A DNA stretch of 62,286 nucleotides, counting the filler, from Stramenopiles sp. TOSAG23-3 (Eukaryota), in NCBI GenBank assembly GCA_900128585.1. It is 5 parts of 5 records of this genome, joined end to end, with 100 filler letters (N's around TTAATTAATTAA, not from the genome) between each part and the next. Parts side by side here need not be neighbours in the genome. Positions count along the whole stretch, not along the records: positions 1 to 27,871 come from LT642254.1; positions 27,972 to 55,672 come from LT642255.1; positions 55,773 to 57,877 come from LT645072.1; 2 more parts are not named here. One strand, given 5' to 3'. Of the stretch, positions 1,022-57,832 are shown in pieces. The notes below the pieces were generated by a model that was not told where the DNA came from, did not search any database, and worked only from the letters and a program-made list of their open reading frames with translations. Numbering within the stretch: the first letter of the stretch is position 1; each line of letters starts with the position of its first letter. The translations under genes were made by a program, and so were the position numbers.

Positions 1022-1093
1022 AGTTAGGATTAGGGTATGAGGACGCTAAATATTTAATTTTATACTTAAATAACAGCCAATTTTCTTGTTTTT
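1022..1093 (-). repeat. Gene-3'-end element, copy with telomere-like tail
   Basis: Minus strand reads AAAAACAAGAAAATTGGCTGTTATTTAAGTA...TTTAGCGTCCTCATACCCTAATCCTAACT; 35 nt past the kinase stop. Confidence 0.9.
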
Positions 1094-1128
1094 ATTTAAA
1101 CTTATTTTTAGCTCTCGCTTCTTGTATC

Positions 1129-3060
1129 TTACGCGGATTTCAGGAGCAACGGCGACACGAACTTGTAGGCATTCTTGATTCGAGCAGAATCCCCTTCTTG
1201 GTATTTTCTACAGACCTGTCCAATCTCAACCCACAGCTTTCCGTACTCGTCTAGTCTGTCGAAGAAGCGATCGCGCAACTTTCTATTGTGGGTGTAATTC
1301 AACATACTTTCCACATGCTGGTTTTTCTGGTACACCCCCAGGATCACGGTGTCGATAGCAGTCCAGAAATTAGTGAATTCTTGCAAAATCGTATCCACCT
1401 CGGACAACTTATGGACGCAGCCTGAAATTTTTGTCATGACGTTGTCGTCCTCCCCCTGCCTACCGCTTTCAGCTTCGGGCGAACTACTACGACTCCTAGG
1501 AGAAAGGCGTGGTGGAGTCAACGGAAGTACTGCCTCGATAATTTCATTTGATTTTCTGCTGCTGCCCGTGTTTGCGGCATCGGTGATGTTCGGCAAGCGT
1601 CTCTGCAGGGCCGCTTCGCACGTGTAGTTAAGCTTCAGCATAAGGTTCCCGTTCTCCTCCATCAACGATTTTGCACGCTGCCTCATTTCAGCGACGAAGC
1701 CTTGAATGTTCTTAAAAATTTGCCCAGCAAGTTCAGGCTCGCCCTCTTCAACGGCGAGCTTCAAATCATCGATGATTTCTGCCAATTCTGCCGCGGTCTT
1801 GCCAAGGCTGTCCATCATGGCGCCCGACTTTTGAAGCTGCATACTGCTCACTTTGGCATTCAACGATATCGCAATTCTAAAATCGCCACTCGCCAGATTG
1901 TATGCCTCTTCGAACAAATCTTCGATCTGAAGCTGCAAATTCATCAAATTGGTTAATCTATACACAATGTCGCCGTTGTACTGTTTCTGCAGTAGCATCG
2001 GCTGTTGCTCACTATTATGGTCCCTCGTATCGACCTCCATCAGAACCCCAGAGGCCGTCCGAACGGCCTTTCGTTTCTTGTCCCCAGATTTTCCCACAGC
2101 ACTATCCGACAATTCTTTCGTCCCATGCTGCGGGCTTGAGGTTTGGGCAACCACGGTGGCCTTGCCTTGGAACCACGGGTGGGAGAGGCATGCTTCGGAC
2201 GATGGTCGTCCCTCAGGGTGCGGGTTCATCAGCTGCTTGATCAGGTCTTTCGCATCGTCGGAGACGTTGCCCCAGTGGGACGACCGAGCAAAACTTATTT
2301 GACCGGAGCCGTCATTGACGAACTCTGGGAAAATTCCCGAGAGCATTACATACAAACACGCACCAAACGACCAGCAGTCCGCCTTCACGCCATACCCTTC
2401 GTCCGCCCCCCCCATGCGCCGTTTCGGGTCAACCTCAGGGGCGTAATACTCCGGGGTTCCAGCAAACGTCTTTGCGTACGAACCCGACCCAACTGTCCTA
2501 CTCAACCCAAAATCCAATAATTTCACGCTGCCGTCATCGGTCAGAAGAATGTTCTCTGGCTTGATATCGCGATGCACTATCTTCATGCTATGAATGTAAA
2601 TAAGAGCAGACAGCACTTTCGACATGACCGGTCGTGCGTCCTCTTCCAAAAATTTTCCACGGCTCAAAATTTCGTCAAACAGCTCCTTTCCAGGCGCGTA
2701 TTCTAACACGAGCAGCAACCGTTCGTACTCCCCCGGGTTGTGGGGGATCGAGCCGTCGTGCTTGGTCCAAAACGTTTCTACCAGCCCGACTATGTTCGGG
2801 TGCGAAAGGCTTTGCGTTATTTTCACTTCTCGCAACAACCGTTCCGGATCAAAGGACTCCCTTAGCTTCAGCGGCCGCACGTCGATGTTTTTAACAGCAA
2901 AAGTCTTCCCATCCATATTCCTTGTGCATCGATGAACCGTAGCATACGCCCCTTTCCCAATCCGTTCATGCGTCATGTACTTTTCTTGAAACGCGCTGGT
3001 TACAACACCAGACGCCGACACGTTCCCAGCGCTTTGGCCGGACGACGCGAAGGTTGCCAT
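1129..3060 (-). CDS. Ser/Thr protein kinase (CAMK/Chk2-like) with helical C-terminal domain
   Basis: IGKGAYATV, AVK, HRDIKPEN, DFG, GTPEYYAPE, ADCWSFG motifs. Confidence 0.93.
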   Translation of the reverse strand: MATFASSGQSAGNVSASGVVTSAFQEKYMTHERIGKGAYATVHRCTRNMDGKTFAVKNIDVRPLKLRESFDPERLLREVKITQSLSHPNIVGLVETFWTKHDGSIPHNPGEYERLLLVLEYAPGKELFDEILSRGKFLEEDARPVMSKVLSALIYIHSMKIVHRDIKPENILLTDDGSVKLLDFGLSRTVGSGSYAKTFAGTPEYYAPEVDPKRRMGGADEGYGVKADCWSFGACLYVMLSGIFPEFVNDGSGQISFARSSHWGNVSDDAKDLIKQLMNPHPEGRPSSEACLSHPWFQGKATVVAQTSSPQHGTKELSDSAVGKSGDKKRKAVRTASGVLMEVDTRDHNSEQQPMLLQKQYNGDIVYRLTNLMNLQLQIEDLFEEAYNLASGDFRIAISLNAKVSSMQLQKSGAMMDSLGKTAAELAEIIDDLKLAVEEGEPELAGQIFKNIQGFVAEMRQRAKSLMEENGNLMLKLNYTCEAALQRRLPNITDAANTGSSRKSNEIIEAVLPLTPPRLSPRSRSSSPEAESGRQGEDDNVMTKISGCVHKLSEVDTILQEFTNFWTAIDTVILGVYQKNQHVESMLNYTHNRKLRDRFFDRLDEYGKLWVEIGQVCRKYQEGDSARIKNAYKFVSPLLLKSA

Positions 3061-3385
3061 TACTCTTATAAGGATAGTTCAATAGTTTCCAGTTCGCACG
3101 ATGGAAAAATGAAAACGAAAAACACAAAACAGGCAACTTCCTTTCCAGTCTTAAATCGTTCAAAATAGTAATACAATTGAAGAAGAAAGCTTTCCTCTTT
3201 CTCCAACACTAGATCAATTGGTCGTCATTTCCGGAATATACATTTTTTAATAAAAAACAAACTATATACTCAATACTTAAATAAAAAAAGTTTAATTCTC
3301 TTCTTCTTCTTTTTTTTTTAGTGTGTATTTTATAATAAAATATCATCTCCTCACCACCACAAACAACACGAAGCAGGATGGACGG

Positions 3386-5241: not shown

Positions 5242-5368
5242 AAGGGAGCAGGGACGAAGCAAGACAAAAAAATCAAAATTTAAAAACAAAAATTTGGTAT
5301 TATTGAAAAAAAAACTGATTAGTATGGTATTATTGAATAATAACGTACTACCGGTATATTAGAAAAAA

Positions 5369-5723
5369 CAAAATATATAGTATGTTTTAAGACTCTCATT
5401 TTAAATCAAGTACTTCTCATAAATTATATGAGATTCAGTGCGCGTTTATTCCAAAAGGACACAGAGAAAGTACAAAATTCAGTTTTGCAGTCGTTGCTTT
5501 AGATTTGCGCCAAAAGGAAAATTGTGGAATCGTGTGTGTGTAGTGTACGAATTAGTGCAAATATCTCCCTCGACACTAAAACATATAAACATTTAAGTAC
5601 CGATTCGGATCGTTCATGGACTCCACTCTAGATTTCAGTTTCCAGTTTTCAGTTCGCAGTACATTAATTTTAATTACTTAAATAACATTAAAATGAGAGT
5701 CTTAAAACATACTATATATTTTG
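5369..5723. mobile_element. MITE-like segment bounded by a perfect 36-bp inverted repeat
   Basis: 5369-5404 CAAAATATATAGTATGTTTTAAGACTCTCATTTTAA is the exact reverse complement of 5688-5723; no TSD seen. Confidence 0.5.
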
Positions 5724-5751
5724 GTTCTTAAATAACAGCCAATTTTCTTGT
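5649..5751 (-). repeat. Gene-3'-end element, copy split by an insertion
   Basis: TCAGTTCGCAGTACATTAATTTTAATTACTTAAATAACA (5649-5687), then the IR arm, then CTTAAATAACAGCCAATTTTCTTGT (5727-5751). Confidence 0.85.
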
Positions 5752-5799
5752 ATTAAACATTTAAGAATCTTGACTTGAAAATTAAAAATGTAAATTTAC

Positions 5800-5866
5800 A
5801 GTTAGGATTAGGGTACGACGAAGCTAAATTTAAAATTACTTAAATAACAGCCAATTTTCTTGTTTT
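5800..5866 (-). repeat. Gene-3'-end element, copy with telomere-like tail
   Basis: + strand AGTTAGGATTAGGGTACGACGAAGCTAAATTTAAAATTACTTAAATAACAGCCAATTTTCTTGTTTT; 29 nt past the IPK stop. Confidence 0.9.
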
Positions 5867-5895
5867 AATTTACAGTCAATGTGCAATGTTAATCT

Positions 5896-7805: not shown

Positions 7806-8721
7806 GTTTCCCGCAGTCAAAATCCCAAAGGTAGAAGGAACCGCTTTCTCCAGTAAATAAAATACCGCAAAGCAATGATTAACGACAACTTTGTTGACCG
7901 GATAATACGAACGTTTTACAAGGTCCCGATCATGAAGTAATAAATTTATCGTTTTAAATAGAACCTTACGTAAATAAAAATGGTGTACATCTCTTTTTTT
8001 TAATTAATTCAAACATTATTATTATTAATTATTTATTATTTATTATTTTTTTTTTTTTTTATTACAGTATTATTCAAAAAAAAAAAAAAAAGAAGAGATG
8101 AGGAGAGGAGAGGAGAGGAGAGGAGAAGAAAAAAAGATGAATGAAAGAAGAAAAAAAAAAGAATAGTATTAAATTAATATATGTTTAACAGTATGAAATC
8201 TCTATACTATTTAGATGTGTTATAATGTATTACAGTAAAAACGTACAGCTGAAGCTGAAAGCTGAAAGCTGAGCGAGCGGAATGCCGTTATTTTTATATT
8301 ATTTTATTTTATTTTATTTTAGCTCTGACGACTGATGAAAAAATAAGGACTGAATTCCACGTGGACTGCATCATGCATGCTGCATGCATGCTGTGATGAA
8401 TTGTGAAGAATGCAATAATTTAAGAATGCAGCAATGCAGTTGAATTACTCTTCTTCTCTTTGCATGCTATATTATAGTAATAAAACTACTATTGTCCATG
8501 GTCACATTAGCGAGTTACGTTAGTGTTAGTAATAATAATAATAATAAAAACAATTATTAAAAAATAGCGGTTGCAATCGCTGGTTGATTACATTTCATTT
8601 GGCGAAATTGGATAGCACATTCGTCTAATCAATTTGATTGAAAACCACCACTAAAAAGGTAGAAGGAATCTCTGCTACATAATTAGTGTTGCCGAAGTTT
8701 GCGTCTAGAACCGGATACAAA

Positions 8722-11700
8722 ATGGAAGAGCAGGGACATCCAGAGGAGTCTGGCAAACAGGAAACCGTTAGTTCCAACCAGGAAGACGTTGCTGCCAACC
8801 CGGAAGTTGTAGTTGCTGACGTTGATTCCGATCCTGATGACTTGGACGAAGACGTTCATGTTGCGAAGTCAGGTATGGACATAATGATGTCCCTGGAGGG
8901 CTCAGCTTTGAACGATCTGAGATCACGCTTTGAAACGAAAGAGGAAGAAGAGGGCGACGGGTTAGACTTGGACGAGTTTGTTGACACGTTTTTGGAGTTT
9001 CTTACACCCGACCAAGACGATCGAAAACATCTTGTGACCGATCTTGTCGAATTGTTTCACCAGATTGATATCAATGGCGACGGAACAGTAGAATGGGAGG
9101 AATTTACTTCGTACTGTGTGGAGGCGGGATTGCTTGCAACCCGCCGTGTCAAAATTCCTCTTAAATACCAGTTTGTTGAAGACAAACGGTTTGTGGACAA
9201 ATATACGAAAGGGGAGTTGTCTGGGATTACTTGGATCCCTGAAATCAATCGTTTGGCAGTGCTTGAAAAAGGAACCTGTGTTCTAAAAATGTACGACAAC
9301 AATTTCCTGCTGCGCGGTACCGTGGATTTAAGGGATGGAGTGCACCCGGAAGAACAAAAGAAAAACGAGAGCGAGCACAAAATCCGTCAAGACATCCAGG
9401 AAGTTAAAGCGAGCGTGCTGACAGTTTGCTACGTTGTCCCTAAGAACATTTTGGTGATTGCCTCATCTGATCTGGGTATTTCGCTGTGGGAATGTGGCCT
9501 GCAAAAGAAAAACCCCTTTTTGAAAACTTCTGCGTTGCTCAAGCCGGATGAGTACCGTTTTTGTGGCCAGATTCATACCGCGGCAATGGTCTTAAAACTA
9601 AAGTTCTGCCCTGTGTCGGATTTGGTATGGGCGGTTGGAGGGCATGAGGTGATTAGTAATGGGGTCAGTGAGGAGCCTTCTCAAAATCACCCTGGAATAA
9701 TACAAGGCTACAAAGTTGTGATGACAACTGCGGGGGGTCTTAAAGATTTTTACGACCTGAGTCCGTTCTTTCGTTTGGAAGGATACCATCGTGCCTGCGC
9801 CATGGACATTCTGGAAATAGAAAAAGAAGGCGTACTGGTCACGTCTTCTATTGACAAACACAAAAATTTAGGATTGTGGGATATACACACAAAAAAGTTT
9901 CGTTCGCCACTTCAAGGGCACAGTAGAGGGGTAGTTTCTATAGTTTATGCTGACGACCAAAATTTGTTAGTTAGTGCTGGCTTTGAATACGAGGCGCTTA
10001 TTTGGGATGTGAAAGGGTCAAAATTCCCAATAATGACAATTTCAGGACATCATTCGCCCCTCGTTGGCGTCAGTCTGGCCCCCTTCACAACTGGTTCAAA
10101 TGCAATTACGTTGGATCGAAAAGGGAATTTCAAAATGTGGGACATACGGCGCTCCACGCACTCAAAAGCCTTGCTGCTGGAGACCTGGGAAGTTAGCCAA
10201 GGCGTCGGTGGATTTCAACCCAAATGTTTTGACATTATGGTGCCCGGAAAGGATTGTGTTGCGGCGGGCTACAATTTGCACGTATTTAAATGCAGACGCA
10301 AGCGAACTACAGAAATGATTCCCTCCTTCGTGCAATATAATCCTGAATTTATGAAGTTTGCCGTTGCGTTTGGGTCCGATATTCTCATCTACAACGCGGA
10401 GGATGGGGCGGAGTTGCAGCATTATAGAAATATTGGTAAATCAGAAATTACCTCAATGTGTTTGGATCGCCGTTATAGAAAACTGATCGTGGGCTACCAC
10501 AACGGCGATATTTTAGTGCATAACTTTATGAACGGTGCGGTTATGAAACGGTTCCAAGGGCACTCTTGTGATGTCACGGCACTAGTTATGATTCGGCAAG
10601 ATGATTGCCTTGTAAGTACATCTTGGGATAAGTCGATAAGAGTGTTCGATGAAATTGCACCAGGAGAAGGTTTAAGCCACCCTCCGACTGTCTCGAGCAT
10701 GAGAAGTATTAACGACGTTCATGACCGTGACGTCGGGTGCATGGCGGTATCGCATACCTTGAGTCTTGTTGCAACGGCAGCTACAGATTTTAAAATTAGA
10801 ATCTGGGACTTTCAGCAACTGAAGCTGGAAAAGAACGGCAGTTACTTACACCACACCGTCGAAATCACGTGCATCAAATTTGTAGACCCTTACCCTATCC
10901 TGGTATCGTGCGATTGCAGCGGCTTAATCGCGATATGGACGGTGCGACCAGACGTAAATAGGGGAAGAGTATTGCATGCATTTCACAATCTTTCCGTTGT
11001 GAATGAATTTGTGTCCATGGCTACGATGCAAAAAATTGAGAAGCGAGAGAAAGAGGAGAATTTTGCATTTTTGACCGGCATTCCCTTAGAGAAAAATGAA
11101 ACGGAGGAGGAAGAGCCTAGTAATTTGCAACCAGTTGCCGTGAATGCTATAGCAATTTCAACAAGCAAAGGTTTTCCTGAGCTGTACAGCGGCGACGACG
11201 TTGGATCGATAAAGAAATGGGATTTGAAACGTTTCATAGATTCTTACAAAATAACCCCTGTAACCAAGTCGGTCACAGGGTTGATAAGCTATAACGCAAG
11301 GAGGAGGTTTCACCGGTCAGCGAAAGGCGACATAAATTTTGAGGGTAACTCTGACACCCGCAACAAGCCAGGGGGTATAGTTCAAGGAAAGAACAAGGAC
11401 GTTAAGGTAACAATGGTGAAAGCATGGAAGGCCCACTCCGACGCAATCAATCATTTGCACGCGGTGAACGAAAGGCCATTTTGCGTTGTTAGTTCCTCGA
11501 TGGATCTTAGCTGCAGAATTTGGTCGTGCGATGGGCTTCCCATGGGCAGCCTTTGCGTCAGTGTATTGGAAAAACAAAGGATAGCAGAGGGGCGAGCAAA
11601 GAAGGTTCCTTGGCTGCTGACCCCTCCTGTTAATCACCGAAGGCACGAGCGTCTAAAACACGGCCAGTTTGTCATGGAGTCGGTAGATAAGATAAGGGAG

Positions 11701-12997
11701 GAAAAGGCAAAGAGGGCACAGAAAGATGCCGCGCGCGTTGCTATACCCGCGTTGGTACGTAGCAGGGCGCCATCCCCTAAATCGGAGGGGGGGGGGGTCA
11801 AAAAGCTTCAGTGCAATTTTGGGGCAGCTCGAGAAGCCAGACGACTCAAACACTTTACCGCCATTGAAGGAAAGCAAAGGCCCAAAGTACCGTCACTTTT
11901 CAGCAGAAATAACATCAAGAGAAAGGGTTTTATCCTCTTCTATCGCTCTGCAAACTCCCGACCTAGGACTCTCCCCGTTCTTGCAGGAGCAATTGGGGGC
12001 CACATGGCACCCGCAGACCGAAAAGAAGAGCCCTCGTAATTCTATATTTGGGCAAAGCTTACCAAAGAATCCTCGGCCTCCCATGGTTGGGAGCGCATCC
12101 GCCCCAGAATTGTTGCCACCCGTGGCAGATGCTGAAGAGAAGCCGCAAACTGCAAGTGTAGTAGAGGTTTCAGAGGCAGTAAAAGTTCGTAAAAGGATAC
12201 GTATGCGGAAAACCTTGACCCGTGTCAATTCGATGCTTGCTGAGGCAGAATTGATGGAAAACGTTCACTTGGGATCCAGCGAACAGGACCGTCTGCGCAA
12301 TGTCCATTCCTCAATTTTTGGCGCTCGCGCAAGTGCAGAGATACCGCTGAAGGGAGGGGAAAATGTTCAGCGTGTGAAACATTTTGGGCCATACACAATG
12401 CAAGACGTGCAATCCGTTAGGGCGCTGTTCAATAGTTACGACGATGATGGCTCAGGCTCCATTGACTCGACTGAATTTAAAACGTCCGCAAACATGAAAC
12501 ACCAACACTTGTTTGAGAACGCCGGGAGCATGTTTTCCGCAATTGACAAAGATGGCTCTGGAACTGTAACGTTTCAAGAAATGTGCGAAGCGGTTTTCCC
12601 GAACCTCCCCGAGAGCGTTTACCAAGAGATGCTTGATTACGTCACGAATAACGAAGAATCGCAAAGGAAAAGACGCAATATACAACTCGCCCCCAAACAG
12701 GTAGAAGAAATAAAAGAAATATTTCATCTTTTTGATGTGGACAAATCTGGGGGCATAACGATTGAAGAATTGTACGGGGCTCTAGCAAGTTCTCATGGTT
12801 CCGATACAGAAGAATTTGAAACTTATTTTTCTATGGAAGAATTGCGTAAACTTGTATTGCAATACGACGCGGATGGAAACGAAACTCTAGATATTGACGA
12901 ATTCGTCAACTTGTTTCATGACAATTTCTACGATGATGGCGCTGTTAACGATAGCAGAGACCACTCCTCGGTAGTTGATTCCAATATCCGCTATTGA
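8722..12997 (+). CDS. EF-hand + WD40 + C-terminal EF-hand protein (WDR49/CFAP337-like); one apparent frameshift at G11 run 11787-11797
   Basis: N-terminal DINGDGTVEWEEF, many GH..WD repeats; the overlapping ORF 11726-12997 carries four EF loops (DDDGSG, DKDGSG, DVDKSG, DADGNE); removing one G fuses them. Confidence 0.8.
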
Positions 12998-13021
12998 AAC
13001 AAAACATTTTACTAAGTTATT

Positions 13022-13120
13022 AAAAACAAGAAAATTGGCTGTTATTTAAGTAATTAAAATTAATGTATACTGCGAACTGAATATCTAGATTTAGACATTC
13101 TAGGTTTGCATTCTTTCATG
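13022..13120 (+). repeat. Gene-3'-end element, long copy
   Basis: AAAAACAAGAAAATTGGCTGTTATTTAAGTAATTAAAATTAATGTATACTGCGAACTGAATATCTAGATTTAGACATTCTAGGTTTGCATTCTTTCATG; 24 nt past stop; aligns over ~100 nt with 54906-54998. Confidence 0.92.
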
Positions 13121-44780: not shown

Positions 44781-45335
44781 AAACCACCAATTTTTGTCGA
44801 TTTAAGTGTTGCGCCTTACTTTGTATCGAGCATTTGAGAATTTTCGGTGGCTTTGCGGGGGTGGAAAATGTCGTCTGTGCAAATGAGTAATAATAATTAA
44901 AACGATTTGCTTATAGACTTAAGTTCAATTTATTGCCGCCGCCGCGTCCGCGTCTCGTGTATATTGATGATGATGATGAAGTTGATGATGATGGCCTATC
45001 TATTATTATATTAAATACCATATTCATTATTATTATAATAATTTAAATTATATATAAATATATTAATGAAGAAATAAAACTGCAACAATGTATTATAACG
45101 TAATAGTCGTCCTTTTAGTTTTTTTTTAAATTATTATTAATTACTTCTGCTAGCTGGCTCCTCTATATGGTATAATGATATACCAGGTACTATGGGTATG
45201 GGGGGTTAGAATGGTGAGGTTCATGGAGACAGTAATACGGCACCCTAGTCGTCTACATTAATTGGAGATTAATAATATAATATCGCATTGAATACAGAAT
45301 GAGGAGCCTGCTACTGTGCCTGCTATGTAAACCCT

Positions 45336-48143: not shown

Positions 48144-48561
48144 GCACTACTGATGATCGATTTTTTAAGCAACAACAGCAGCAGTTCAGTGTGAACTTGA
48201 AGTTCGTTCGTATGGTATTATACCGTAGTACCGAACCGGGTTGTTTTTTTGGATAGTACTAATAATTAATAGTTTCTATAATAATAATAATAAAAAAATA
48301 TCTTCTTTTTTTAAATCTTTTTTTTCATTTTTTTTATCAACAGCAACACATCATCACATCCTGCTGCGTCTATTTTAAATGACTTTACCTGGTAATACAT
48401 CTCTACTTGACTACCGTACTACTACCATCAATAAAAAAAGAAGAAAAATTCTTCAATAAAAAATGATATATTGTATATTATAAAAGATACTGTACGATAC
48501 CGGTAGAACTAATAGCGTAGTTAAAAGCGGGCGCGGTAGGAACAAGCCGACATGCACACAT

Positions 48562-50427
48562 TCATGGCATTGTGACGGGGAACTGTCGCGTGACTGAATC
48601 CATGCCAGTGGTAAGCAAGGTGTTTTCGTTTAACCATGCAACGCCTTGCACGTCGCCGTTCGCGTGCACCCTGGGGTATTTCGATTTTTTGAACTTTTTT
48701 GCAATGTCCCAGACAAACACGGAACTGTCCGTTCCCCCACTTGCCAAGTTCGTAGAATTCGGGTGCCATGCGATGCAGGTTATTTTTGCGGTATGGTATT
48801 TCCAATAGCCACTGACCATGTACTTGCTCGAGGCAAAATCCCACACTTTCACCTCCCGGTCATCTGTGCCCATTGCCAATTTTGCACCATCTGGACTGTA
48901 TGCCAAGACTCGGACGACGCCGCTTGCGTTGCCCAGAACAGTAGAATTTTCAATCACATCCCCATTAACAGGGAACCGATGAACGTTCTTGTCGCTGCCG
49001 CCCATCATAATCTCAGACCCGTTCGCTGCGATGGCCACCGAAGTGGCCTCCAGGCTCCCTGGTAGATCTTTCTCTCCCACAACGCTGCCGTTTCGGATTA
49101 ACATCAGCTGGTTTCGTTTCGCGCAAACGACCAAAGAGTTGTCCTTTTGGCACACGGAAATGCCATTCCTTATCGGCTGTCCCCCTAGCGGTATCTCTGA
49201 CGTGTACTCTCCCGTCGAAACGTTGCAAATCTTGATTTTGTCGTCAAACGCGCCGGAGTACAACTTGTCGCCGGAAATCGCGACAGCGCAGCAGTTCTTG
49301 GTATGTATGTTTCCCGTGACACGGGAAGCCGTTCCTTCTCCGCCTTCGTTCCAAACGCACACAGCCCCTGTCGATCCTGCCGTCGCAAACCGGTTGCTTG
49401 CCCTGTCGTACGCAAGGGAGTTTACAACACCCTTGTGGCCTTGGATGACCCGGACGGGCCGATCACTACTAGATTTAGGGTCAAGGAAGCTCAGGTCGCC
49501 GCTCAGCGCCAAACTGATGAATTTGTCGCCGGCAACCGTGCATGAATTTTGCATGTGCTCCAGCCCTGGCGCGTCTGCAAACGTGAACGTCTTTATGCAC
49601 GTTGACGTTTCGACGTCCCAGAGCTTTACAGTTTTGTCGGCCGATGACGTCAAAAGCTGCGCGCTGTCCTGGGTCCACGCGCACGAGTACAGGGACCCAA
49701 GGTGGGCGTTCGGAATCTCAAGTTTCTTCTCTCCCGTGCCTCCGTCAAAAAATGCGATCTTTTTGTCGGAGGCCACCGTAGAAAACAACGACCCGTTGGG
49801 AGCGTAGCGGACGCAGTTGATGAAACTCGAATGCGTTCGTTTGTCGGACGACGTCCATTTGAAAGGCGGGCCTTCGTAGAACATGACGGCCATGTCCTCC
49901 CCTACGCTGGCGATGCGGAATGGACGCTTGGGTCGGTAGGCAATAGAAAGGGCGCCTTTCATGTGGCCTGACATTTTCGCGCCCAAGTCGCTTCCAGTAT
50001 CGTAAGCGACGCACCCCGCCTTTATTTTTCCATCCCCTGATACAGCAATGCGCTTGCTTTCCGAATCCCAGCAGAGATCTGTGATCCCTTTTGGCATCAA
50101 GCTTGTCTCCTTCTTCAACATGTGCTCTGGGTTTGTCCAGGCCCACACTCGAAGCTTTCCGGAAGCGTCTGCCGACGCAACGTAGTGCCCGTTTGGGGAA
50201 AACTGAGCGGCCGTGGTATTGCTTGAGTGTTCCTGGTAAACATACGATGACCCAGCGTCTTCCAGGCTCCTTACAACCACGTTTTTTCCATGCGTGTAAA
50301 TGAGCATGCTACCATCTGCACTCGCTGCAAGCTTCGCAGCAACCCCGCGTTCAACCGCGGGCGCCGGTGGCAAGCAACCAGCCTGCAACAAAGGCGGGCT
50401 GTCGTTCCCTGAAGCAATGGAAGCCAT
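48562..50427 (-). CDS. AIP1: Actin-interacting protein 1 (WDR1)
   Basis: PAVERG, YVASADASGKLRVW, RPKRPFRIAS, FYEGPPFKW, WKYHTAKI. Confidence 0.93.
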   Translation of the reverse strand: MASIASGNDSPPLLQAGCLPPAPAVERGVAAKLAASADGSMLIYTHGKNVVVRSLEDAGSSYVYQEHSSNTTAAQFSPNGHYVASADASGKLRVWAWTNPEHMLKKETSLMPKGITDLCWDSESKRIAVSGDGKIKAGCVAYDTGSDLGAKMSGHMKGALSIAYRPKRPFRIASVGEDMAVMFYEGPPFKWTSSDKRTHSSFINCVRYAPNGSLFSTVASDKKIAFFDGGTGEKKLEIPNAHLGSLYSCAWTQDSAQLLTSSADKTVKLWDVETSTCIKTFTFADAPGLEHMQNSCTVAGDKFISLALSGDLSFLDPKSSSDRPVRVIQGHKGVVNSLAYDRASNRFATAGSTGAVCVWNEGGEGTASRVTGNIHTKNCCAVAISGDKLYSGAFDDKIKICNVSTGEYTSEIPLGGQPIRNGISVCQKDNSLVVCAKRNQLMLIRNGSVVGEKDLPGSLEATSVAIAANGSEIMMGGSDKNVHRFPVNGDVIENSTVLGNASGVVRVLAYSPDGAKLAMGTDDREVKVWDFASSKYMVSGYWKYHTAKITCIAWHPNSTNLASGGTDSSVFVWDIAKKFKKSKYPRVHANGDVQGVAWLNENTLLTTGMDSVTRQFPVTMP

Positions 50428-51233
50428 TATTGTCGTGGTCTTTCTTCTGTGCCGTAAAAAATGTATTTCGTGAGTGCGTACTTTTTTTTATAGTCCTTTT
50501 TTCTTCGTGCCCTTGTGTCTGAGAAAAGGACAAAAGTCATTTGAGGTTTCCTTATTTTTCTGTGCAAACAAAATAGACACTATAGTATTACGGTAACATC
50601 AAACCGTAGTAGTCATTATTTTATTATAATTATTATAACAATCAGCCACGGAACGGACGGGTAGCTAGTTTTATAATAATAATAAAGAAGATAGAAGAAG
50701 AAGATTTTCTTTTCTTCTTTTTTTTTTTTCTTCTTTCTTTTTTTTTTGTGTGTTTTTCTTCTTCTTCGTTGAAGTTTATTATACTTAATAATTTAAATAA
50801 TACTACAATCATATAGAAATGCTGTTACTGAATTATAGTACTATTGTAGTATTGTAGTACAATCCAAATAGGGGATGACACAATGATAGTGAAATTGGAA
50901 TAGAATAAGAATAGCAGGCACGATGACGATCCTATCGATCAGCAAGGTACAGGCACAGAAAAAGGGAAGGTCACCACCTTATTATCGTTGTTAGCAAAAA
51001 AAAAATAGAAAAAAAGAAAAGTTGTATGTAATTGATGGATTCGGTGCACAAAGGATTGGGACTACTCGAACATACTGTTTCATCCAATAGAGAGTGGTTG
51101 ACTGGAGGGGATGAGGTATGAAATATTACACGACCTCCAAGAGACTCGCAACGTAGAAGAGAGACGTATGGTCGCTAAATTATAGTACGTGTAAAAAGCT
51201 GACCAAACGGACGGACGGGGCACGCAACCAACC

Positions 51234-53300
51234 ATGTTTGGTGACAAGTTTAAGGAGCTGGCGAAAAAGGTCGGGGAGGCGACCTCGAGTGGAAAAGATG
51301 AAGAGTTGCAAAAGGTGCGAAACGAGAAAGCAGCAATGGAGGAGCAGTTCAAAGGACTGGTGGAAGACTTTACGCAGATGAATGTAAATTTGAACGAGTA
51401 CAAAGGCAAGGTGTACGACTTGGAAAAAAATCAAAAGATGTACCAAAAGCAGGTCAAAGAACTTCAAACCCAAGTGAATACTGCCGAGAAAGACCTTCGG
51501 AAGAAAAACATGACGATAAAGAAAAGCAAGGAAAAGGGGGCGCTGGAATCCCTGATGGAGGAAAATGACAACCAGAGAGAGCAGATCCTTGTTCTGAAAA
51601 ACTCGTTGCGGAGCCTGCACGAGGCCCAGCAGGCGGCAAAAGAGGAAGCCGCGGAAACGGCAGAACGCGGGGGCGCGCAAGGCAACGAGGACGACGGCGA
51701 CAGCCAAGCCGTCCTTGACGACCCATTGTCGCACCCCCTGGCTCCTTTGGACGAAGCAAGCTCCGCCTCGTCTGAAAAAGCTGAACAGGTGAAGTTAACA
51801 GAGAGCCCGACCGCGTCGCCATCGGCTAGCACGAGAAAGGTCGCGCGCAGGCCGTCCGTGTCCGACCAAATGGCCGTGAAGCAACAAGAAGAGTTGATCT
51901 CCTTGAACAAGCAGGTGGACGAGTTGAAGTCCAAAATTGAGCGGGACAAAGTCGCGCATTACGAAGATTTGCAGCGTATGGTAGAAAAGTCCACGCAGAA
52001 GGAAGAAGAGATCCAAAAGCTGAAGACTGGCTTGAAGGGGGAGAACGACAAATTAAGCAGCAGCCAAAAGAAAATTTCAGAAATGGGTAAAAAGCTGGAG
52101 TTGATGGTGAACGCATACCAAACGCTGAAGAAGTCGAACGACACCGTTGTGAAGAAAATGTCGGAGCTGGAAGCCGCGAACCAGAAGCTGGAAGAATTGT
52201 CTGCCGATAAGAACGAGGAAGGGATCAAAGCAGTGGAGCAGAAACACCAAGAAGCGCTCAAAAAGGCAGAGATGGAGTCGAAGGGGGCCTTGGACGGGGC
52301 GCGAGCACGGAGGGAGGCGGAGGTCCAGGGGTACCAAGAGCGGCTGGCCAGAGCAACGGAGAAAAGCGAGAAACTAGAGAAAGACATTGTCGAAACCACT
52401 TCGGAAAAGAAGGCCCTTCAGGAAGAAATCGCCCTCTTGCAGAAGTCAAAGGACGAGAATGACGACCGGTTGCAGCAAACGAAAAAAGAATTGCAGGCGC
52501 AGCGGGTGAGGGCAACAGAAGCGGAAGTGAAACTGACTGAAACGAATGAACTCCTGGAAGGACGTGTAACGGAAGTCCAAGACGTCATGAGGCAACTCGA
52601 AGAAGGGGGGAAAGAGCGCCTCGCCATAGAAGAAACCCTTCAAAGTGTCCGGGAAGACGTAGAACAATTGAAAGAGGGCAAGAAAAATGCTGAGCAAAAG
52701 CTCGTGGATCAGTCTATAGAGCATAAAATTGCGGGTAAACGGCAAGTTCAGATGATTAAAGATTTAAAGACCGTGCTGAAGCAAGAAGCGCAGCGGCGAG
52801 AATTGGCAGAGGGAAAACTGAAGAGCACGACTAGCGTGCTAGAAAAATTGCAGGAAGAAATGGCGAGCGCTCCCGTCATGCCTCCGCCAGCCCCAGCCCC
52901 CACCCCTAAAGAAGGTGGAATACTGTCACCGGGCCGGCGCAAAAGTCTTAGTGCGCTAGTTGGTGCAGTCAGCGGTGGTGGTGGTGGAAGCAGCAATGAT
53001 ACTGTCAGTTCGGGGAGCACCCAAAAGGGAAGGAGCGCGAGTGTTGCCGACGATGACGGGGTGAAGAAAGCCCTTGCGAAGCGCCTAGAATCGCTTTTAG
53101 AAGAAAATGTCATGATCAAGGAAAAAGTTAGCATGTTGGAAGGGATTGTGCAGGAACTTACTGACGAACTGAACATAGCAAAATCAATCAACACTGCAGT
53201 GGAGAGCGCAACCAAAAAGGATGAAGCTGAAGGTGCGCCCGAGGAGAACAATGAAGACCCTCTTGGCGAAGATGACCAGATGGAAAGCTTTGATATATGA
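51234..53300 (+). CDS. Long coiled-coil protein (C-terminus GRIPAP1-like)
   Basis: Extended heptads; MIKDLK..LKQE and LESLLEENVMIKEKVSMLE motifs. Confidence 0.7.
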   Translation: MFGDKFKELAKKVGEATSSGKDEELQKVRNEKAAMEEQFKGLVEDFTQMNVNLNEYKGKVYDLEKNQKMYQKQVKELQTQVNTAEKDLRKKNMTIKKSKEKGALESLMEENDNQREQILVLKNSLRSLHEAQQAAKEEAAETAERGGAQGNEDDGDSQAVLDDPLSHPLAPLDEASSASSEKAEQVKLTESPTASPSASTRKVARRPSVSDQMAVKQQEELISLNKQVDELKSKIERDKVAHYEDLQRMVEKSTQKEEEIQKLKTGLKGENDKLSSSQKKISEMGKKLELMVNAYQTLKKSNDTVVKKMSELEAANQKLEELSADKNEEGIKAVEQKHQEALKKAEMESKGALDGARARREAEVQGYQERLARATEKSEKLEKDIVETTSEKKALQEEIALLQKSKDENDDRLQQTKKELQAQRVRATEAEVKLTETNELLEGRVTEVQDVMRQLEEGGKERLAIEETLQSVREDVEQLKEGKKNAEQKLVDQSIEHKIAGKRQVQMIKDLKTVLKQEAQRRELAEGKLKSTTSVLEKLQEEMASAPVMPPPAPAPTPKEGGILSPGRRKSLSALVGAVSGGGGGSSNDTVSSGSTQKGRSASVADDDGVKKALAKRLESLLEENVMIKEKVSMLEGIVQELTDELNIAKSINTAVESATKKDEAEGAPEENNEDPLGEDDQMESFDI

Positions 53301-53327
53301 GCCCTGGCGTCGTGCCGGTTGGTTAAT

Positions 53328-53468
53328 AAAACAAGAAAATTGGCTGTTATTTAACGTACTATAATAATATATTTGTTTTTTTTTTTATTATATATATAAT
53401 TTTAATAATTTGTTTTTAATTTTAATTACTTAAATATTATAATATATCAGCCAATTTTCTTGATTTTT
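53328..53468. repeat. Inverted pair of gene-3'-end elements between convergent genes (53328-53354 +, 53416-53468 -)
   Basis: AAAACAAGAAAATTGGCTGTTATTTAA 27 nt after the + gene; TTAATTTTAATTACTTAAATA[insert]CAGCCAATTTTCTTG 83 nt after the - gene. Confidence 0.88.
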
Positions 53469-53551
53469 ATTTTAAGAATTACCCCCCCATCTTTTCTAAT
53501 CTGGTCGTATTCAAAAAAGGTAAATTCGTTTGTACTACTCGTACAGTTCTT

Positions 53552-54358
53552 CTACTTAATTTTTGTTTTGGGTTTCGGACAGGTGCGAAGAAGCGAAGCG
53601 GCAAGAAGGCTGACCATACCAGACAACATAATTACCCACTTTAAAATCGCCGAAGTGGAGGCCACTGTTATTGCTGCGTTGGGTGTCCCTTCAAAATCTT
53701 CTAAATTCAAGCAATGAATTGTATTTTCAATCACATCGCATGCCCCCCCTAAAATAAAGATTTTGGAAAGAGAGGGAAAATACAACGTTCCATCCAGCCC
53801 CCGACGTTCCACTTCAAACGCAAGCCACGAAATGCAAAAGAGGGTGTAGAGGGTGGGGTACAGAAACAAATCGACGAAAAAGTGATTCTTAAACTTTTCG
53901 AGATCGTCTGCCGTCCACGCCTTCACTTGCTCTCTAAAAGTTTCTGGGGATGGCGTCAGCTGCATTTTGAGCAGTTTGCGGGTAAACTCTGGGCCGAGGG
54001 TCACGCCGATCGCGGCTTGTGCAGCGGCGGCCAACAAAAACAACTGCCACATGTACGTTCGTAACCCAAACATATCAAAACTAGTCCGCTTTTCAAACAA
54101 AACTCTAACTTTAAAGACCTGCTGTTTCTTGACTAGGTCTGAAAATCTAGCTTTGTTCGACAGCCGCACCCCTTTTCCGATCAGCTTATACCCACTGTAA
54201 GAAGGCCCGATCAACTTAGGAAGCTCCTTCAATAGCTCTGCCACTGTTACACGTTGGCCGCAACGAAACAGGTACCGCCCTTTATTGAACGCTGCCTCAA
54301 CTGCCACCAAAGGTGCACTTTGATCTCCGACGAGGACGGCGTCCCGTTCCTTTCCCAT
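53552..54358 (-). CDS. Ubiquitin-like domain fused to a ~4-TM membrane domain
   Basis: VTVAELLKEL..IG..YKLIGKGVRL UBL pattern; hydrophobic helices with GACDVIEN and ASTSAILKW. Confidence 0.65.
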   Translation of the reverse strand: MGKERDAVLVGDQSAPLVAVEAAFNKGRYLFRCGQRVTVAELLKELPKLIGPSYSGYKLIGKGVRLSNKARFSDLVKKQQVFKVRVLFEKRTSFDMFGLRTYMWQLFLLAAAAQAAIGVTLGPEFTRKLLKMQLTPSPETFREQVKAWTADDLEKFKNHFFVDLFLYPTLYTLFCISWLAFEVERRGLDGTLYFPSLSKIFILGGACDVIENTIHCLNLEDFEGTPNAAITVASTSAILKWVIMLSGMVSLLAASLLRTCPKPKTKIK

Positions 54359-54905
54359 TGTATGGATATGTACGTTCCACAAAAGGCTTTAACGATTCTG
54401 CATCACATACTAGGAAAGAAGAACAGGCGGTTAACAATTAAAAAATCAATATATTATGAACTCTAAATTGTTAATCAATCGCTTTATATAATTTGTTAAT
54501 TACCAAGCCACCAAGGGCCAAGGAAGGGGCGGGGCAGTAAACTCTTTAAAAAATATTACCAACAAGGGAAGAACCTCCTCCTCCTCTTCCTACCGGTACG
54601 GTATATACGGGTATACCAGTTACTACGACGGGTAGTACGTTTTTCATTATATTTATGTTGTAGTCCTCGTAGTACACCACCACACCAGCAGTGCCCTACT
54701 TTATAATATAACCGGTATAATAATAGTCTAAATACCATTTTCTACTAAAAAAAATAAAAAAGATGACCGCCGTTGTTTTTTTGTATCTTAAGTAAAAGGC
54801 TTTGATAGACGACAGCTGTTCAATAAAAATGTTCGGTGTCCGATCTCCATCTCCCCATTAAATAACGATTAGTAAAACCAAAAGAGCAAAGATATGTTCG
54901 CAGTA

Positions 54906-54998
54906 CATGAAGGAATGTAAACCTTGAATTTGTCTAAATTTAGAGCTCAGTTCGCAGTACATTAATTTTCATTACTTAAATAACAGCCAATTTTCTTG
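54906..54998 (-). repeat. Gene-3'-end element, long copy
   Basis: + strand CATGAAGGAATGTAAACCTTGAATTTGTCTAAATTTAGAGCTCAGTTCGCAGTACATTAATTTTCATTACTTAAATAACAGCCAATTTTCTTG; 68 nt past stop. Confidence 0.92.
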
Positions 54999-55066
54999 CT
55001 TATTAATTTATAAATTTTTACGCGTAAACGTTTTTAAAAAATTGAATCGCGAAGGGTGTCTGACTA

Positions 55067-55672
55067 CTACCGCGCTTCGACCTTTAATCGCTTCGCCAAA
55101 CCGTTTGCTTTTCGACTCCATTGTCGCAACTTTTTTGCCATATCCTTGGTGTACGCTTCTCGCCCCTGGAGGGCGTCAAACTCTTTTTGCATTCGTTGCC
55201 ATTTATTTTCCCAGCTGCACACCATTTGTTGCATACCTTGCAATTCACTCACAGCGCCAGTCAACTGCACGTTTAAGCTGTCTTTTTCAGTATCCATGGC
55301 CTCCTTCTCTGTCAAAATACGTCTCTCAGCATCTTTTAACTCTTTCACCTGGTTTTGCAAGATAACACGAACGTCTTGCAGTTGTTTCACTTCATTTTCT
55401 TTGTTTTTTAAACGAAACTGAAGCTCTTGCATTCTTTTTTCCCGATTTTCCGTATCCTTTTTCATCGCGTCGTTTACGATTTTAAGTTTTGTTTCATTTG
55501 AGCTTCTTGCGCGCACTTCCCCGCTTTGGAATGCACTTACCTGCCCGTTCAACCGCTCGTTTGCACGTTTCACGGCATCTAATTCCTTTTCCTTTCTGTT
55601 CATTTTCATAATGATTTCGTTCAAGGAATCTTCTCTGTCTTTTTCTACTTTGGCTAGAAGGGCGTCTTTCTC
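55067..55672 (-). CDS. Coiled-coil protein, 3' fragment (truncated by contig end)
   Basis: Frame open up to the linker; K/E/Q-rich heptads. Confidence 0.7.
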   Translation of the reverse strand, partial: EKDALLAKVEKDREDSLNEIIMKMNRKEKELDAVKRANERLNGQVSAFQSGEVRARSSNETKLKIVNDAMKKDTENREKRMQELQFRLKNKENEVKQLQDVRVILQNQVKELKDAERRILTEKEAMDTEKDSLNVQLTGAVSELQGMQQMVCSWENKWQRMQKEFDALQGREAYTKDMAKKLRQWSRKANGLAKRLKVEAR

Positions 55673-55772
55673 NNNNNNNNNNNNNNNNNNNNNNNNNNNN
55701 NNNNNNNNNNNNNNNNTTAATTAATTAANNNNNNNNNNNNNNNNNNNNNNNNNNNNNNNNNNNNNNNNNNNN
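55673..55772. other. Artificial contig-joining linker
   Basis: N44-TTAATTAATTAA-N44. Confidence 0.97.
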
Positions 55773-57689
55773 CCAAACGTGCAAGATTTCTTGGAAGGCA
55801 ACGAAAGGTACGGGTACCCACCAGTGGAGGTGCTTGGCGAGCCGGGAAAAGAGTTCCACTACAGTGGGGGCGGGTTCCTCGTTTTGCAGCACATCATTGA
55901 AATGATGGAGGGCAAGAAGGCAATTGAAAAAATCATGGAGCCGTTTCTGGACCAACTGGGCATTTCGAACGAAGAACTGACGTTTGAACCAAAGCCAGAC
56001 CAGCGCATCGACGTTGCCCAAGGGTTTGACGACAAAGGCAATATGATCGTAGGGGGGAGGAAAATGTTCCCGGGGTATGCTGCCGGGGCGGTGGGCACCC
56101 CGGCGGCTGTCATGAAAGTGCTGGAACACTTGTCCATCGCGTTCTCGGACATCAACGGGTCGGGGCCAATTTCTCACGACACCGCCGTGACGATGCTGCA
56201 CGGGTCCGATAAGGGGTGCAAGAAGTTTATGGGGTGCAAAATGGGCGTTGGTGTCTTTGTCATGGAGGCCCGGCGAAACCGGTTTGCCCTTCACCAGGGC
56301 GCCAACGATGGGTACCGCGGGATGTTCCTGTACTGTTTCAGCGGGCCAGACAAAGGGGCCGGAATCGCAATATTTGCGAATGGAGACAACCGGGCAATGA
56401 TGATGATATCGGAAATGACACAGTGTATACTGAACGAAATGTTGCTCGAGGGGGTGGACGTGTCTAAGTTCTCAGAATCGTTTTCATTCGATCAAATAAA
56501 GCAGGAAGAGATCGTCAACTTTGGGTACAAGAAAATGGTGTTCGACGCTTTCCGGGAAGACCTGCCGGACATTATTGCCCCCCCACTGTTCACCAGCAGG
56601 TCATACGATCAGCCTGCCCCATTGGACCGACTGTCGCGGTACAACGGCGCCATTGGGGCGATGCTGGTGTCCACGACGAATCAAGGATTTGCGCAGGCGT
56701 CCAACCTAGTCCTTCCTTTTGTGCCGATGTTCGACGAGACCCTTTTTGGCCCCCACGGAAAAGTTATGGACAGCTGGGAATCTGTGCGCCACAACCCGAA
56801 AGAGTATGAACGGGCCGTTTTTGAGCTAAGGTCGCCAATGAACAACATTGCGTACCTGTCGCTCTCGACCAAATGGCACTTTGGAAACCAGGTCAAATTT
56901 GCCCAAGTATTTGGCAGCGAAAACTTGGACGAGGAAGAGTGGGTGCCGCTGATGGACAAGGCGAACCTGTCTGGCCACGCAGAGGTGCGCTTGGAGGCAT
57001 TGGGGACGGGCGGCAGGACGATCAGGTTCTTGAAAGTGCACGGGTACCCAGACGGTGGACTCTCGCGCATCGGTGTTTACGCCGATGGAGCCATTAGCGA
57101 CGAAACGGTTTTGAGCACCTTTGACGGAAACAGCATTCCGTTTCCGGACAAGATACCCCAAACGGTGAAACCAATGTCTATCGAATTCGACATGACCCCA
57201 GCGGAAGTGGAGGCGAACTTTAAAAAACTAGGGGCAGGGCAGGAGTACAATGTTGCCAGCACAACCTACGGGGGGTCCATAGTGTCCGTCACAAACGAGC
57301 ACTACGGCTCAAGCAGCCAGACCCTTTCCCCCTTTGTTCCATTGTCTATGTTTGACGGGTTCGAGTCAGCAAGGAGCCACAGCCGAACCCACGTAGAAAA
57401 AATGGTTTTAAAGCTTGGGCGAGCGAGCAACATTCATCGCATCGAGGTAGACTTTACGTTTTTTGTTCACAACAACCCCGTCGACATGCAGATATTTGGA
57501 AGCGAAACAAACGACGGCGACGAGAATAGTTGGACGTCGTTAACTGCTAAAACCCCAACGAAAGCCTTTAGGGGTAACACGAAAGCGTTCGACGTTTCCG
57601 AGTTTTCCGATCGAAAGATACAGTTTATAAAACTAATCATTTACCCCGATGGTGGATTCAACCGGATACGGGTCATGACGAGGGCATAG
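55773..57689 (+). CDS. Beta-lactamase-fold serine hydrolase / allantoicase fusion (5'-truncated)
   Basis: PGKEFHYSGGGF.VLQ, AAGAVGTP, HQGANDGYR, then two allantoicase repeats (MDSWESVRH..YPDGGLSRIGVY; MFDGFESAR..YPDGGFNRIRV). Confidence 0.85.
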   Translation, partial: PNVQDFLEGNERYGYPPVEVLGEPGKEFHYSGGGFLVLQHIIEMMEGKKAIEKIMEPFLDQLGISNEELTFEPKPDQRIDVAQGFDDKGNMIVGGRKMFPGYAAGAVGTPAAVMKVLEHLSIAFSDINGSGPISHDTAVTMLHGSDKGCKKFMGCKMGVGVFVMEARRNRFALHQGANDGYRGMFLYCFSGPDKGAGIAIFANGDNRAMMMISEMTQCILNEMLLEGVDVSKFSESFSFDQIKQEEIVNFGYKKMVFDAFREDLPDIIAPPLFTSRSYDQPAPLDRLSRYNGAIGAMLVSTTNQGFAQASNLVLPFVPMFDETLFGPHGKVMDSWESVRHNPKEYERAVFELRSPMNNIAYLSLSTKWHFGNQVKFAQVFGSENLDEEEWVPLMDKANLSGHAEVRLEALGTGGRTIRFLKVHGYPDGGLSRIGVYADGAISDETVLSTFDGNSIPFPDKIPQTVKPMSIEFDMTPAEVEANFKKLGAGQEYNVASTTYGGSIVSVTNEHYGSSSQTLSPFVPLSMFDGFESARSHSRTHVEKMVLKLGRASNIHRIEVDFTFFVHNNPVDMQIFGSETNDGDENSWTSLTAKTPTKAFRGNTKAFDVSEFSDRKIQFIKLIIYPDGGFNRIRVMTRA

Positions 57690-57730
57690 GCAGGGGTTTG
57701 CATTCTTGGTGGGGCGGTAAATTATTATTT

Positions 57731-57832
57731 AAAACAAGAAAATTGGCTGTTATTTAAGTAGACTAATTAAAATAATTATTATTTATTAAAATATCAAATT
57801 TTCTTTTTTTAAATTTAGCTTCCTCATATACC
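57731..57832 (+). repeat. Gene-3'-end element with detached tail
   Basis: AAAACAAGAAAATTGGCTGTTATTTAAGTA 41 nt past stop; AAATTTAGCTTCCTCATATACC at 57811-57832 resembles the tail of copies 1022 and 5800. Confidence 0.88.

Follow-up and report, generated by a model that had tools for sequence, protein, structure and literature searches.

A recurrent motif behind stop codons of an uncultured marine eukaryote is probably the tail of a non-autonomous retroposon family

Described systems with one constant end

In stringent LINE/SINE systems, as reviewed in PMC3747384, a tail is common to different elements, members are cut at various 5′ positions, and the 3′ end is needed for reverse transcription. 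The repeat family described here resembles such systems (e.g., the eel LINE/SINE pair in the same review) in that a single conserved sequence ends several differing non-autonomous elements at the 3′ side and in that most copies are 5′-shortened and flanked by duplications of variable length. It departs from them in three respects: a partner LINE with the tail was not found in the sample of this family; the tail lacks a stem-loop and finishes with neither a simple repeat nor a poly(A) run, in contrast to most stringent tails described so far; and the larger elements carry an ORF of ~280 codons instead of a tRNA- or 5S-derived head.

Other known sequences match in part. The family shares with 5′-truncated (“dead on arrival”) LINEs and Penelope-like elements a 3′ end that is constant, a 5′ end that varies, many very short copies, and tandem and inverted partial copies now and then, but none of the copies seen is joined to reverse transcriptase sequence. 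Since the longest units seem to share one starting point, some 1.1 kb away from the tail, a non-autonomous element fits better than a truncated LINE. Like MITEs in compact genomes, the copies are short, abundant, intergenic, AT-rich, and away from promoters; unlike MITEs, they have no regular terminal inverted repeats, their flanking duplications vary in length, and one of their ends is variable. Bacterial REP/BIME-type intergenic repeats are short, conserved sequences that build up behind genes, frequently where two of them converge. The motif piles up in the same places, yet its host is eukaryotic, it forms no palindrome or hairpin, and it shows signatures of truncation and duplication. Eukaryotic genes also carry poly(A) or other 3′-end signals, and some protists have short lineage-specific motifs near poly(A) sites. 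The motif is like these in lying within about 20–250 nt past stops, with some copies necessarily in 3′ UTRs, and unlike them in being far longer, not found at most genes, indifferent to orientation, and delimited by duplications.

Copies of the motif and anatomy of the element

The DNA analyzed, hereafter the window, is a stretch of 62,286 nt (filler included) from Stramenopiles sp. TOSAG23-3. It consists of five contigs joined by N44–spacer–N44, and motif copies lie on the first three, matching the three-contig spread reported in the first-pass annotation. The conserved motif is 30–40 bases long, and its 14-mer core occurs 14 times in the window at ≤2 mismatches, compared with 0.76 expected, and none of 100 shuffles reached 14. 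A profile built from the copies gave 12 strong matches in the window, each with E ≤ 1.9e-7, thereby recovering all 12 sites listed previously (Table 1); an extra exact 14-mer at 58140(+) comes without the remainder of the motif. The three degenerate copies that had also been proposed are not significant by the profile (21927–21938, E = 0.61; 16698–16724, E = 1.4; no match at 5282), but the sequence at 21917–22245 is indeed a decayed family copy. No Rfam family matched the window.

A further 198 copies were found in 120 marine metagenome loci. These loci were fetched using the motif itself as the query, and occupancy outside the window is therefore inflated. The window and the 885,644 nt of the 120 loci together contain 210 dispersed profile matches, 12 of them within the 62 kb of the window; one of the 210 falls within a long ORF.

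Table 1. Motif copies and related insertions in the window
Position	Strand	Target-site duplications	Profile match	Content	Setting
1055–1100	−			Tail; family B body toward N gap 960–972	Convergent ORFs 329–958(+) / 1129–3078(−)
5586–5765	−	12 nt; 5586–5597 and 5754–5765	5708–5760	Complete insertion, 156 nt between duplications: tail motif, nested small repeat (inverted copy also at 5363–5404), A-type body	
5793–5876	−	10 nt; 5793–5802 and 5867–5876	5819–5876	Complete short family B insertion, 64 nt between duplications: tail motif and first part of B body	
13016–13068	+			Tail, then family A body to about 13125	Convergent ORFs 11696–12997(+) / 13262–14302(−)
16433–16490	+			Diverged tail; 14-mer with 1 mismatch	Convergent spacer
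21905–22245	+			Old, decayed family D copy	Only convergent spacer without an intact motif
33135–33182	−			Tail; 2-nt insertion at indel-prone point	197-nt convergent spacer
43427–43458	+			Tail; separate insertion, other end undefined	112 nt upstream of minimal insertion 43533–43595
43533–43595	+	13 nt, exact; 43533–43545 and 43583–43595	43536–43585	Minimal insertion, 37 nt: tail alone (43546–43582)	
53321–53375	+			Tail	Faces 53417–53473(−) within one 251-nt convergent spacer
53417–53473	−			Tail; 10-nt insertion at indel-prone point	Orientation opposite to 53321–53375
54955–55007	−			Tail; family A body	Sole window copy between tandem genes; 60 nt to stop of 55067–55672(−), 567 nt to start of next gene
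57723–57771	+			Tail; B-like body up to contig end 57877	

One end of the element is sharp and conserved, whereas the other is variably truncated. In a set of 151 copies, information content climbs steeply at the A-rich edge of the motif and tapers off toward the opposite side. The 181 copies with an exact 13-mer continue into family A (35), family B (43), or other sequence (103). Truncated copies end at differing points of one family consensus, and the inserts enclosed by duplications, 34–337 nt in length, are collinear with that consensus. Family D is 96–98% identical over about 330 nt at four loci, and one family D copy, at locus L041, has a 9-nt duplication. The old D copy in the window has a body roughly 85% like that of young D copies (by eye on the alignment) and has lost the tail motif, with no sign of in-place constraint there.

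Most copies are solo or in direct tandem, and an inverted motif lies within 200 nt of 10 of the 181 copies. When five copies were folded, including one on each of its strands, all were less stable than shuffles (z +0.76 to +1.98), which means that none forms the stable stem-loop of a hairpin-type terminator. No tRNA-like sequence was found in the window, and the bodies consist of ORF fragments or other repeats, not of the tRNA-, 5S-, or 7SL-derived Pol III-type head that marks a SINE in the strict sense.

Exact repeats of at least 9 nt directly adjoin the sharp edge of 32 out of 143 copies, compared with 8 and 7 of 143 when the flank windows were displaced by 60 and 90 nt. Under stricter filters the count is 20 of 165, compared with 6, 5, 3, 2, and 2 of 165 at shifts of 30–150 nt. 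The duplications vary in length: 9, 10, 11, 12, 13, and 14 nt are represented by 2, 4, 6, 4, 2, and 4 of 22 cases, two of which (L025 and L079) are doubtful and repeat-derived, while two pairs are a single locus present in both of two assemblies (L013/L102). Only about 12% of copies yielded exact duplications; in the window, 3 of the 12 did. The five overlapping locus pairs contained no filled-versus-empty orthologous site. In the insertion at 5793–5876, the own sense of the element is the + strand.

Upstream of the motif, on the opposite strand, lie fragments of a multi-copy ORF, most of them cut at the 5′ side. A tblastn search with the 280-aa ORF gave 34 matches, of which 25 reach the C-terminus; these 25 start anywhere from residue 1 to 256, mostly at 200–256. 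A tail copy follows on the opposite strand within 51–282 nt for 18 of the 25 fragments, lies on the same strand for 2, and is absent for 5. The ORF of ~280 codons has no Pfam match and is under weak constraint (dN/dS 0.41–0.85 where computable). In a library of 1.84 billion proteins the 150 homologues listed (of 152 at E ≤ 0.001) are all fragments of 29–419 aa. No reverse transcriptase or endonuclease gene with this tail was found in about 950 kb, a crude search for reverse transcriptase motifs gave 0 matches, and no autonomous partner combining reverse transcriptase with the tail appears among the listed ORF homologues. The sample consists of fragmentary metagenome contigs, and the lack of a partner is therefore weak evidence. 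The domain-less ORF is the only multi-copy ORF family in the same 950 kb, none being transposase-like; 92 tail-adjacent ORFs resemble ordinary host genes (among the 25 Pfam families listed of 130 matched).

Position relative to genes

Copies strongly avoid spacers that contain promoters. Among the 209 intergenic copies of the window and the loci, flank combinations include convergent (106), tandem with the copy antisense (21), tandem with the copy in sense (12), and divergent (1). These 106, 33, and 1 copies are spread over about 50, 85, and 50 kb of convergent, tandem, and divergent spacer, respectively, at equal G+C. As the first-pass annotation had noted, no strong copy in the window lies within a long ORF or in a divergent (promoter–promoter) spacer.

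The motif had further been described as strand-polarised, each copy lying in the sense of the gene that precedes it. This is literally correct in that a same-strand ORF stop lies 19–253 nt 5′ of every window copy (12/12). Yet of the 10 spacers in the window that hold an element, 9 lie between convergent genes or at a contig end, which makes being in sense to some gene automatic. Without convergent geometry the preference is not seen, since between tandem genes the antisense copies (21) outnumber the sense ones (12), many of the former lying 47–120 nt from the stop of the antisense gene. Hence, the apparent polarity is largely geometry, most copies sitting between convergent genes.

Origin of the family and competing explanations

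We consider it likely that an uncultured marine eukaryote harbors a family of non-autonomous, non-LTR-type retroposons and that the motif is their conserved 3′ terminus of ~45 nt (the “tail”) seen in antisense. The duplications, the one-end-anchored variable inserts, the several body families, and the 5′-truncated ORF fragments together support the earlier suggestion of a mobile element at gene 3′ ends. By target-primed reverse transcription, an enzyme acting in trans would make a DNA copy of the element RNA, starting at the 3′ end of the RNA where AT-rich intergenic DNA has a staggered break, and would recognize the tail sequence instead of a poly(A) run or a hairpin. Copying would usually stop early, leaving most copies as the last 34–337 nt, each flanked by a target duplication of 9–14 nt. 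The tail is common to several bodies, namely A and B (which carry the 3′ part of the ~280-codon ORF), D, and C. Copies persist almost solely in promoter-free DNA behind stop codons, above all between convergent genes, where either orientation appears to be “in sense, just after a stop”. Selection or targeting may underlie this positional bias.

The alternative raised in the first-pass annotation, that the motif is a lineage-specific signal for 3′-end processing, polyadenylation, or termination acting in the sense of the upstream gene, now seems highly improbable. It would agree with the same-strand stops upstream of all window copies, with copies that start 3–7 nt past a stop and are thus necessarily inside a 3′ UTR, and with the expression of the organism in six metatranscriptome runs. 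Moreover, the motif edge is nearer to “its” gene, on the 5′ side, in 36 of 51 single-copy convergent spacers, but this 36:15 asymmetry falls to 7:4 when distances are taken from the ends of whole insertions delimited by duplications in convergent spacers (tail side nearer to the stop in 7, farther in 4). Such a signal would be expected after most genes, in sense, but 122 of 147 tandem spacers have no copy (25 have one), and in 51 of the 75 element-bearing convergent spacers a single copy would have to serve two genes. The excess of antisense copies in tandem spacers, the flanking target-site duplications, the failure of either strand to fold, and the loss of the motif from an old copy all argue against the signal. 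Equally remote is the idea that a DNA transposon or MITE family has the motif as its terminal inverted repeat, or that a rolling-circle element ends in it. Inverted pairs do occur, as in the hairpin-like arrangements at L026 and L082 and at 53321(+)/53417(−) in the window, but they account for few copies (10/181), the majority being solo or in direct tandem; the duplications have no one fixed length; and the search for multi-copy ORFs turned up nothing like a transposase. The far boundary varies in position and stays collinear with a longer consensus, a pattern that points to truncation instead of another terminal repeat. Rolling-circle elements are not known to make target duplications.

An origin as a mobile element is also compatible with a later function. 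The tail or the whole insert may have been co-opted at gene 3′ ends, chiefly between convergent genes, either as a terminator or roadblock that works in both orientations or as a protein-binding site of another kind, a scenario that we regard as unlikely, if less so than the two preceding ones. It would draw on the near-saturation of convergent spacers in the window (an intact copy in seven of eight and a decayed one in the other), on the skew of copies toward convergent spacer at equal G+C, and on a CCAAT-like word that can be read directly from the sequence on the element’s sense strand; CCAAT-like words can bind a factor. Occupancy beyond the window is inflated by retrieval with the motif, however, and 30 of 103 convergent spacers in the metagenome loci have no copy. 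Purifying selection against promoter-near insertions predicts the same skew, and one old copy kept its body while losing its tail. The high occupancy of convergent spacers and the 36 of 51 spacers in which the edge is nearer to the gene would also fit a selected role.

As it stands, the retroposon family inferred here is a new repeat family of a kind already known. Three of its details are unusual: the tail lacks both hairpin and poly(A) run, the ORF is domain-less, and copies are strongly excluded from DNA that bears promoters. When this widespread uncultured marine eukaryote is annotated, the motif should be treated as a repeat and masked, rather than modeled as a 3′-end signal. The case illustrates a trap: if a compact genome retains elements only between convergent genes, every repeat in it will seem “strand-polarised” and just past a stop. 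There is a slim chance that the family is targeted to gene 3′ ends, or retained there, and that in this very compact protist genome its tail now works as a terminator or insulator where genes converge, which would account for a copy in nearly every convergent spacer of the window. If so, it would be a 3′-end counterpart to the promoter- or Pol III-targeted retroelements of yeasts, and targeting to, or co-option at, gene ends would bear more widely on how compact genomes keep converging transcription units apart.

Distribution of the motif and the contigs that carry it

The motif, a conserved element of ~30-40 nt behind stop codons, is real: its 14-mer core word, searched with up to two mismatches, gave 14 matches in the window compared with 0.76 expected. 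The sites that the first-pass annotation had listed on the first three contigs were borne out by a profile search, which found 12 strong copies there. Its "degenerate" copies were not significant by profile, but 21917-22245 does hold a decayed element. An exact 14-mer on the fourth contig, at 58140-58153 (+), stands without the rest of the motif next to a long T/C-rich tract and could be a relic or a chance occurrence.

Metagenome contigs were scanned with a 20-mer of the motif, which yielded at least 120 loci, and the window and the 120 listed loci together contain 210 profile copies, one of which lies inside a long ORF. Viral contigs searched for the motif gave no matches. Prokaryote genomes gave three, two of them due to chance; the third (L121:3666-3685) is a true family B copy with tail and body, located on a 4.1-kb contig of 52.5% G+C in a metagenome-assembled genome labelled Dehalococcoidia, and mis-binning of a eukaryote contig is the most likely explanation. 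Neither Rfam at gathering thresholds nor ARAGORN gave a match in the window, and a search of 8.4 million papers returned a single match to the exact 13-mer core word, in an unrelated primer.

The five contigs of the 62,286-nt window are joined at 27872-27971, 55673-55772, 57878-57977, and 60083-60182 by N44, a 12-base AT spacer, and N44, and gene pairs across the joints are not true neighbors. The genes, which show up as long ORFs without interruptions, are of eukaryotic type (protein kinase, Tim44, NACHT/WD40, copper amine oxidase, and allantoicase), and G+C is ~48% in coding regions and ~32% in spacers. The WD40 and EF-hand long ORFs (8683-12039 and 11696-12997, +) share 344 nt that are read in different frames; an assembly error, a frameshift, or an intron may be the cause. 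Two long GAA/AAG microsatellites (17511-17768 and 27972-28064) are thus likely assembly break points, as one is interrupted by an N run and the other lies at a contig end. The region 45300-55200 turns up in numerous marine DNA runs; among metatranscriptomes, six runs contain 24-39% of its words. Among named sequences, the amine oxidase and ribosomal protein uL2 have distant relatives at best, the top matches being 40% to a pelagophyte protein and ~68-70% to assorted eukaryotes; a relative with 83% protein identity was also seen, and the source is described as an uncultured marine eukaryote.

Coordinates of contigs, repeats, and insertions
Feature	Coordinates	Strand	Remark
Contig 1	1-27871		
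Contig 2	27972-55672		
Contig 3	55773-57877		
Contig 4	57978-60082		
Contig 5	60183-62286		
Small repeat C	5708-5760		coordinates are those of the window copy in which it is nested
Small repeat C	5363-5404		inverted
Telomere-repeat-like word, family B body	1020-1045	(-)	example
Telomere-repeat-like word, family B body	5803-5818	(-)	example
Element ORF	L025:5280-6119		longest example
Duplication-delimited insertion, window	5793-5802/5867-5876		
Duplication-delimited insertion, window	5586-5597/5754-5765		
Duplication-delimited insertion, window	43533-45/43583-95		

Anatomy of the element and signatures of insertion

Conservation of the motif starts abruptly at its A-rich, sharp edge and fades gradually on the opposite side, where the repeat bodies lie. 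Among the 181 exact 13-mer copies, 35 carry the body of family A and 43 that of family B; family D bodies are 96-98% identical over ~330 nt at four loci, and a small repeat, C, is a further recurrent body. Within the family B body, ~45 nt from the tail (the motif read as a 3' end), lies a conserved telomere-repeat-like word of two imperfect units. Inside the motif, immediately behind its ...TGTTATTT part, one site repeatedly carries short insertions of 2-10 nt, for example at 33152(-) and 53442(-), and one locus represented in two assemblies (L013:8980 and L102:2497) differs by 6 nt at this point; these insertions may reflect template slippage, repair scars, or another process.

Immediately beyond the sharp edge, and again at varying distances on the fading side, exact direct repeats of 9-14 nt occur in 32 of 143 copies, compared with 8 and 7 of 143 at displaced controls. 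With strict filters, the count was 20 of 165 copies versus 6, 5, 3, 2, and 2 of 165 at displaced controls. The inserts enclosed in 22 strict cases, which include two pairs representing the same locus in two assemblies and two cases that are doubtful because they are repeat-derived, are 34-337 nt long and consist of the terminal part of a family consensus with differing cut points. Two further loci (L087:1519-4159 and L115:8944/8945) are 97-99% identical apart from a 2.6-kb difference that ends exactly inside a family B copy. This segment was considered as a large mobile unit and rejected, as it contains an ordinary gene (CfaA_B_C domain); it may be a repeat-mediated deletion or an assembly join.

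On the opposite strand, long A and B bodies correspond to the 3' part of an ORF of ~280 codons, and the motif comes after a further 50-280 nt. This ORF gave 34 tblastn matches; 25 of these reach the C-terminus, with starts scattered over residues 1-256, and in 18 of the 25 the match is followed by an opposite-strand motif. It has no Pfam domain, and its dN/dS of 0.41-0.85 indicates weak constraint. In a library of 1.84 billion proteins, 152 matches were found, and the 150 listed are fragments of 29-419 amino acids. One of the library entries (P0218, 419 amino acids) resembles FAE1/type III polyketide synthases up to position 205 of a 290-position profile, where it is cut, and from there reads on, without a change of frame, into the N-terminal region of the element ORF, a possible case of a host gene hit by an insertion in some population. 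At L025:2700-6540, at least four copies of the ORF are nested in both orientations with tails in between, and this locus may represent either a hotspot or a source.

Placement and orientation relative to genes

For the assignment of spacer classes, genes were taken as non-overlapping ORFs of at least 150 codons. Within contigs of the window, an intact copy is present in seven of the eight convergent spacers and a decayed one in the remaining spacer; of the other spacers, a single tandem one contains a copy and the divergent ones contain none. Considering all 209 intergenic copies, 106 are found in convergent spacer (~50 kb), 33 in tandem spacer (~85 kb), and 1 in divergent spacer (~50 kb), the three classes having equal G+C; for the remainder, one or both flanking ORFs are lacking. 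Absolute occupancy outside the window is inflated, since the motif itself served to retrieve the loci. In tandem spacers, copies lie close to the stop and away from the next start. Either the loss of promoter-proximal insertions or a targeting of 3' ends would account for this pattern.

The first-pass annotation had also described the motif as polarized in the gene's own sense. In a convergent spacer, however, a same-strand stop lies upstream in either orientation, so this description cannot fail there, and orientation is scorable between tandem genes. Relative to the gene whose stop precedes, tandem copies are antisense in 21 cases and sense in 12; by spacer, 14 are antisense-only, seven sense-only, and four mixed. 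The antisense copies are not due to overlooked small genes, since G+C in the gaps resembles that of spacers. In 36 of 51 single-copy convergent spacers, the motif is closer to the gene on its 5' side, a figure affected by the repeat extending from the motif to the other side only; the ratio becomes 7 to 4 if the ends of duplication-delimited insertions serve as the reference. The apparent polarity is an artifact of gene arrangement.

Interpretation as a probable retroposon family

The suggestion that the motif belongs to a mobile element gains support from the flanking duplications, the single constant end, the truncated inserts, and the several bodies attached to it. A constant end shared by different bodies, variable truncation, and variable duplications are hallmarks of non-LTR-type retroposition, so that the motif is most likely the 3' tail of an element, seen from the complementary strand. 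The evidence is best explained by a new family of truncated retroposons that share this tail and are confined to promoter-free spacers. During retroposition of this type, the specific 3' tail would be recognized; we infer both the RNA step and the enzyme. In "stringent" LINE/SINE systems, as reviewed in PMC3747384, a specific 3' tail is likewise recognized, and the present family resembles these systems in its constant end, truncated other end, and variable duplications. No reverse-transcriptase partner was seen in ~950 kb of fragmentary contigs and the ORF homologs listed, the Pfam screen of tail-adjoining ORFs covering 25 of the 130 matched families. The partner could equally well be Penelope-like or a LINE. 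Long family A copies are followed by ORFs that were considered as possible transposases and turned out to be unrelated host genes.

The inverted arrangements at loci L026 and L082 prompted the idea of a MITE, which was rejected on counts. A hairpin or terminator was rejected as well, since folding of five copies, one of them on both strands, gave no stable structure. One old family D copy has a recognizable body and has lost the motif, which argues against constraint on the motif in place, and we consider it unlikely that a retroposon copy has been co-opted as a terminator. Some copies start 3-7 nt past a stop codon and hence lie inside 3' UTRs, and it is plausible that such copies affect host messages.
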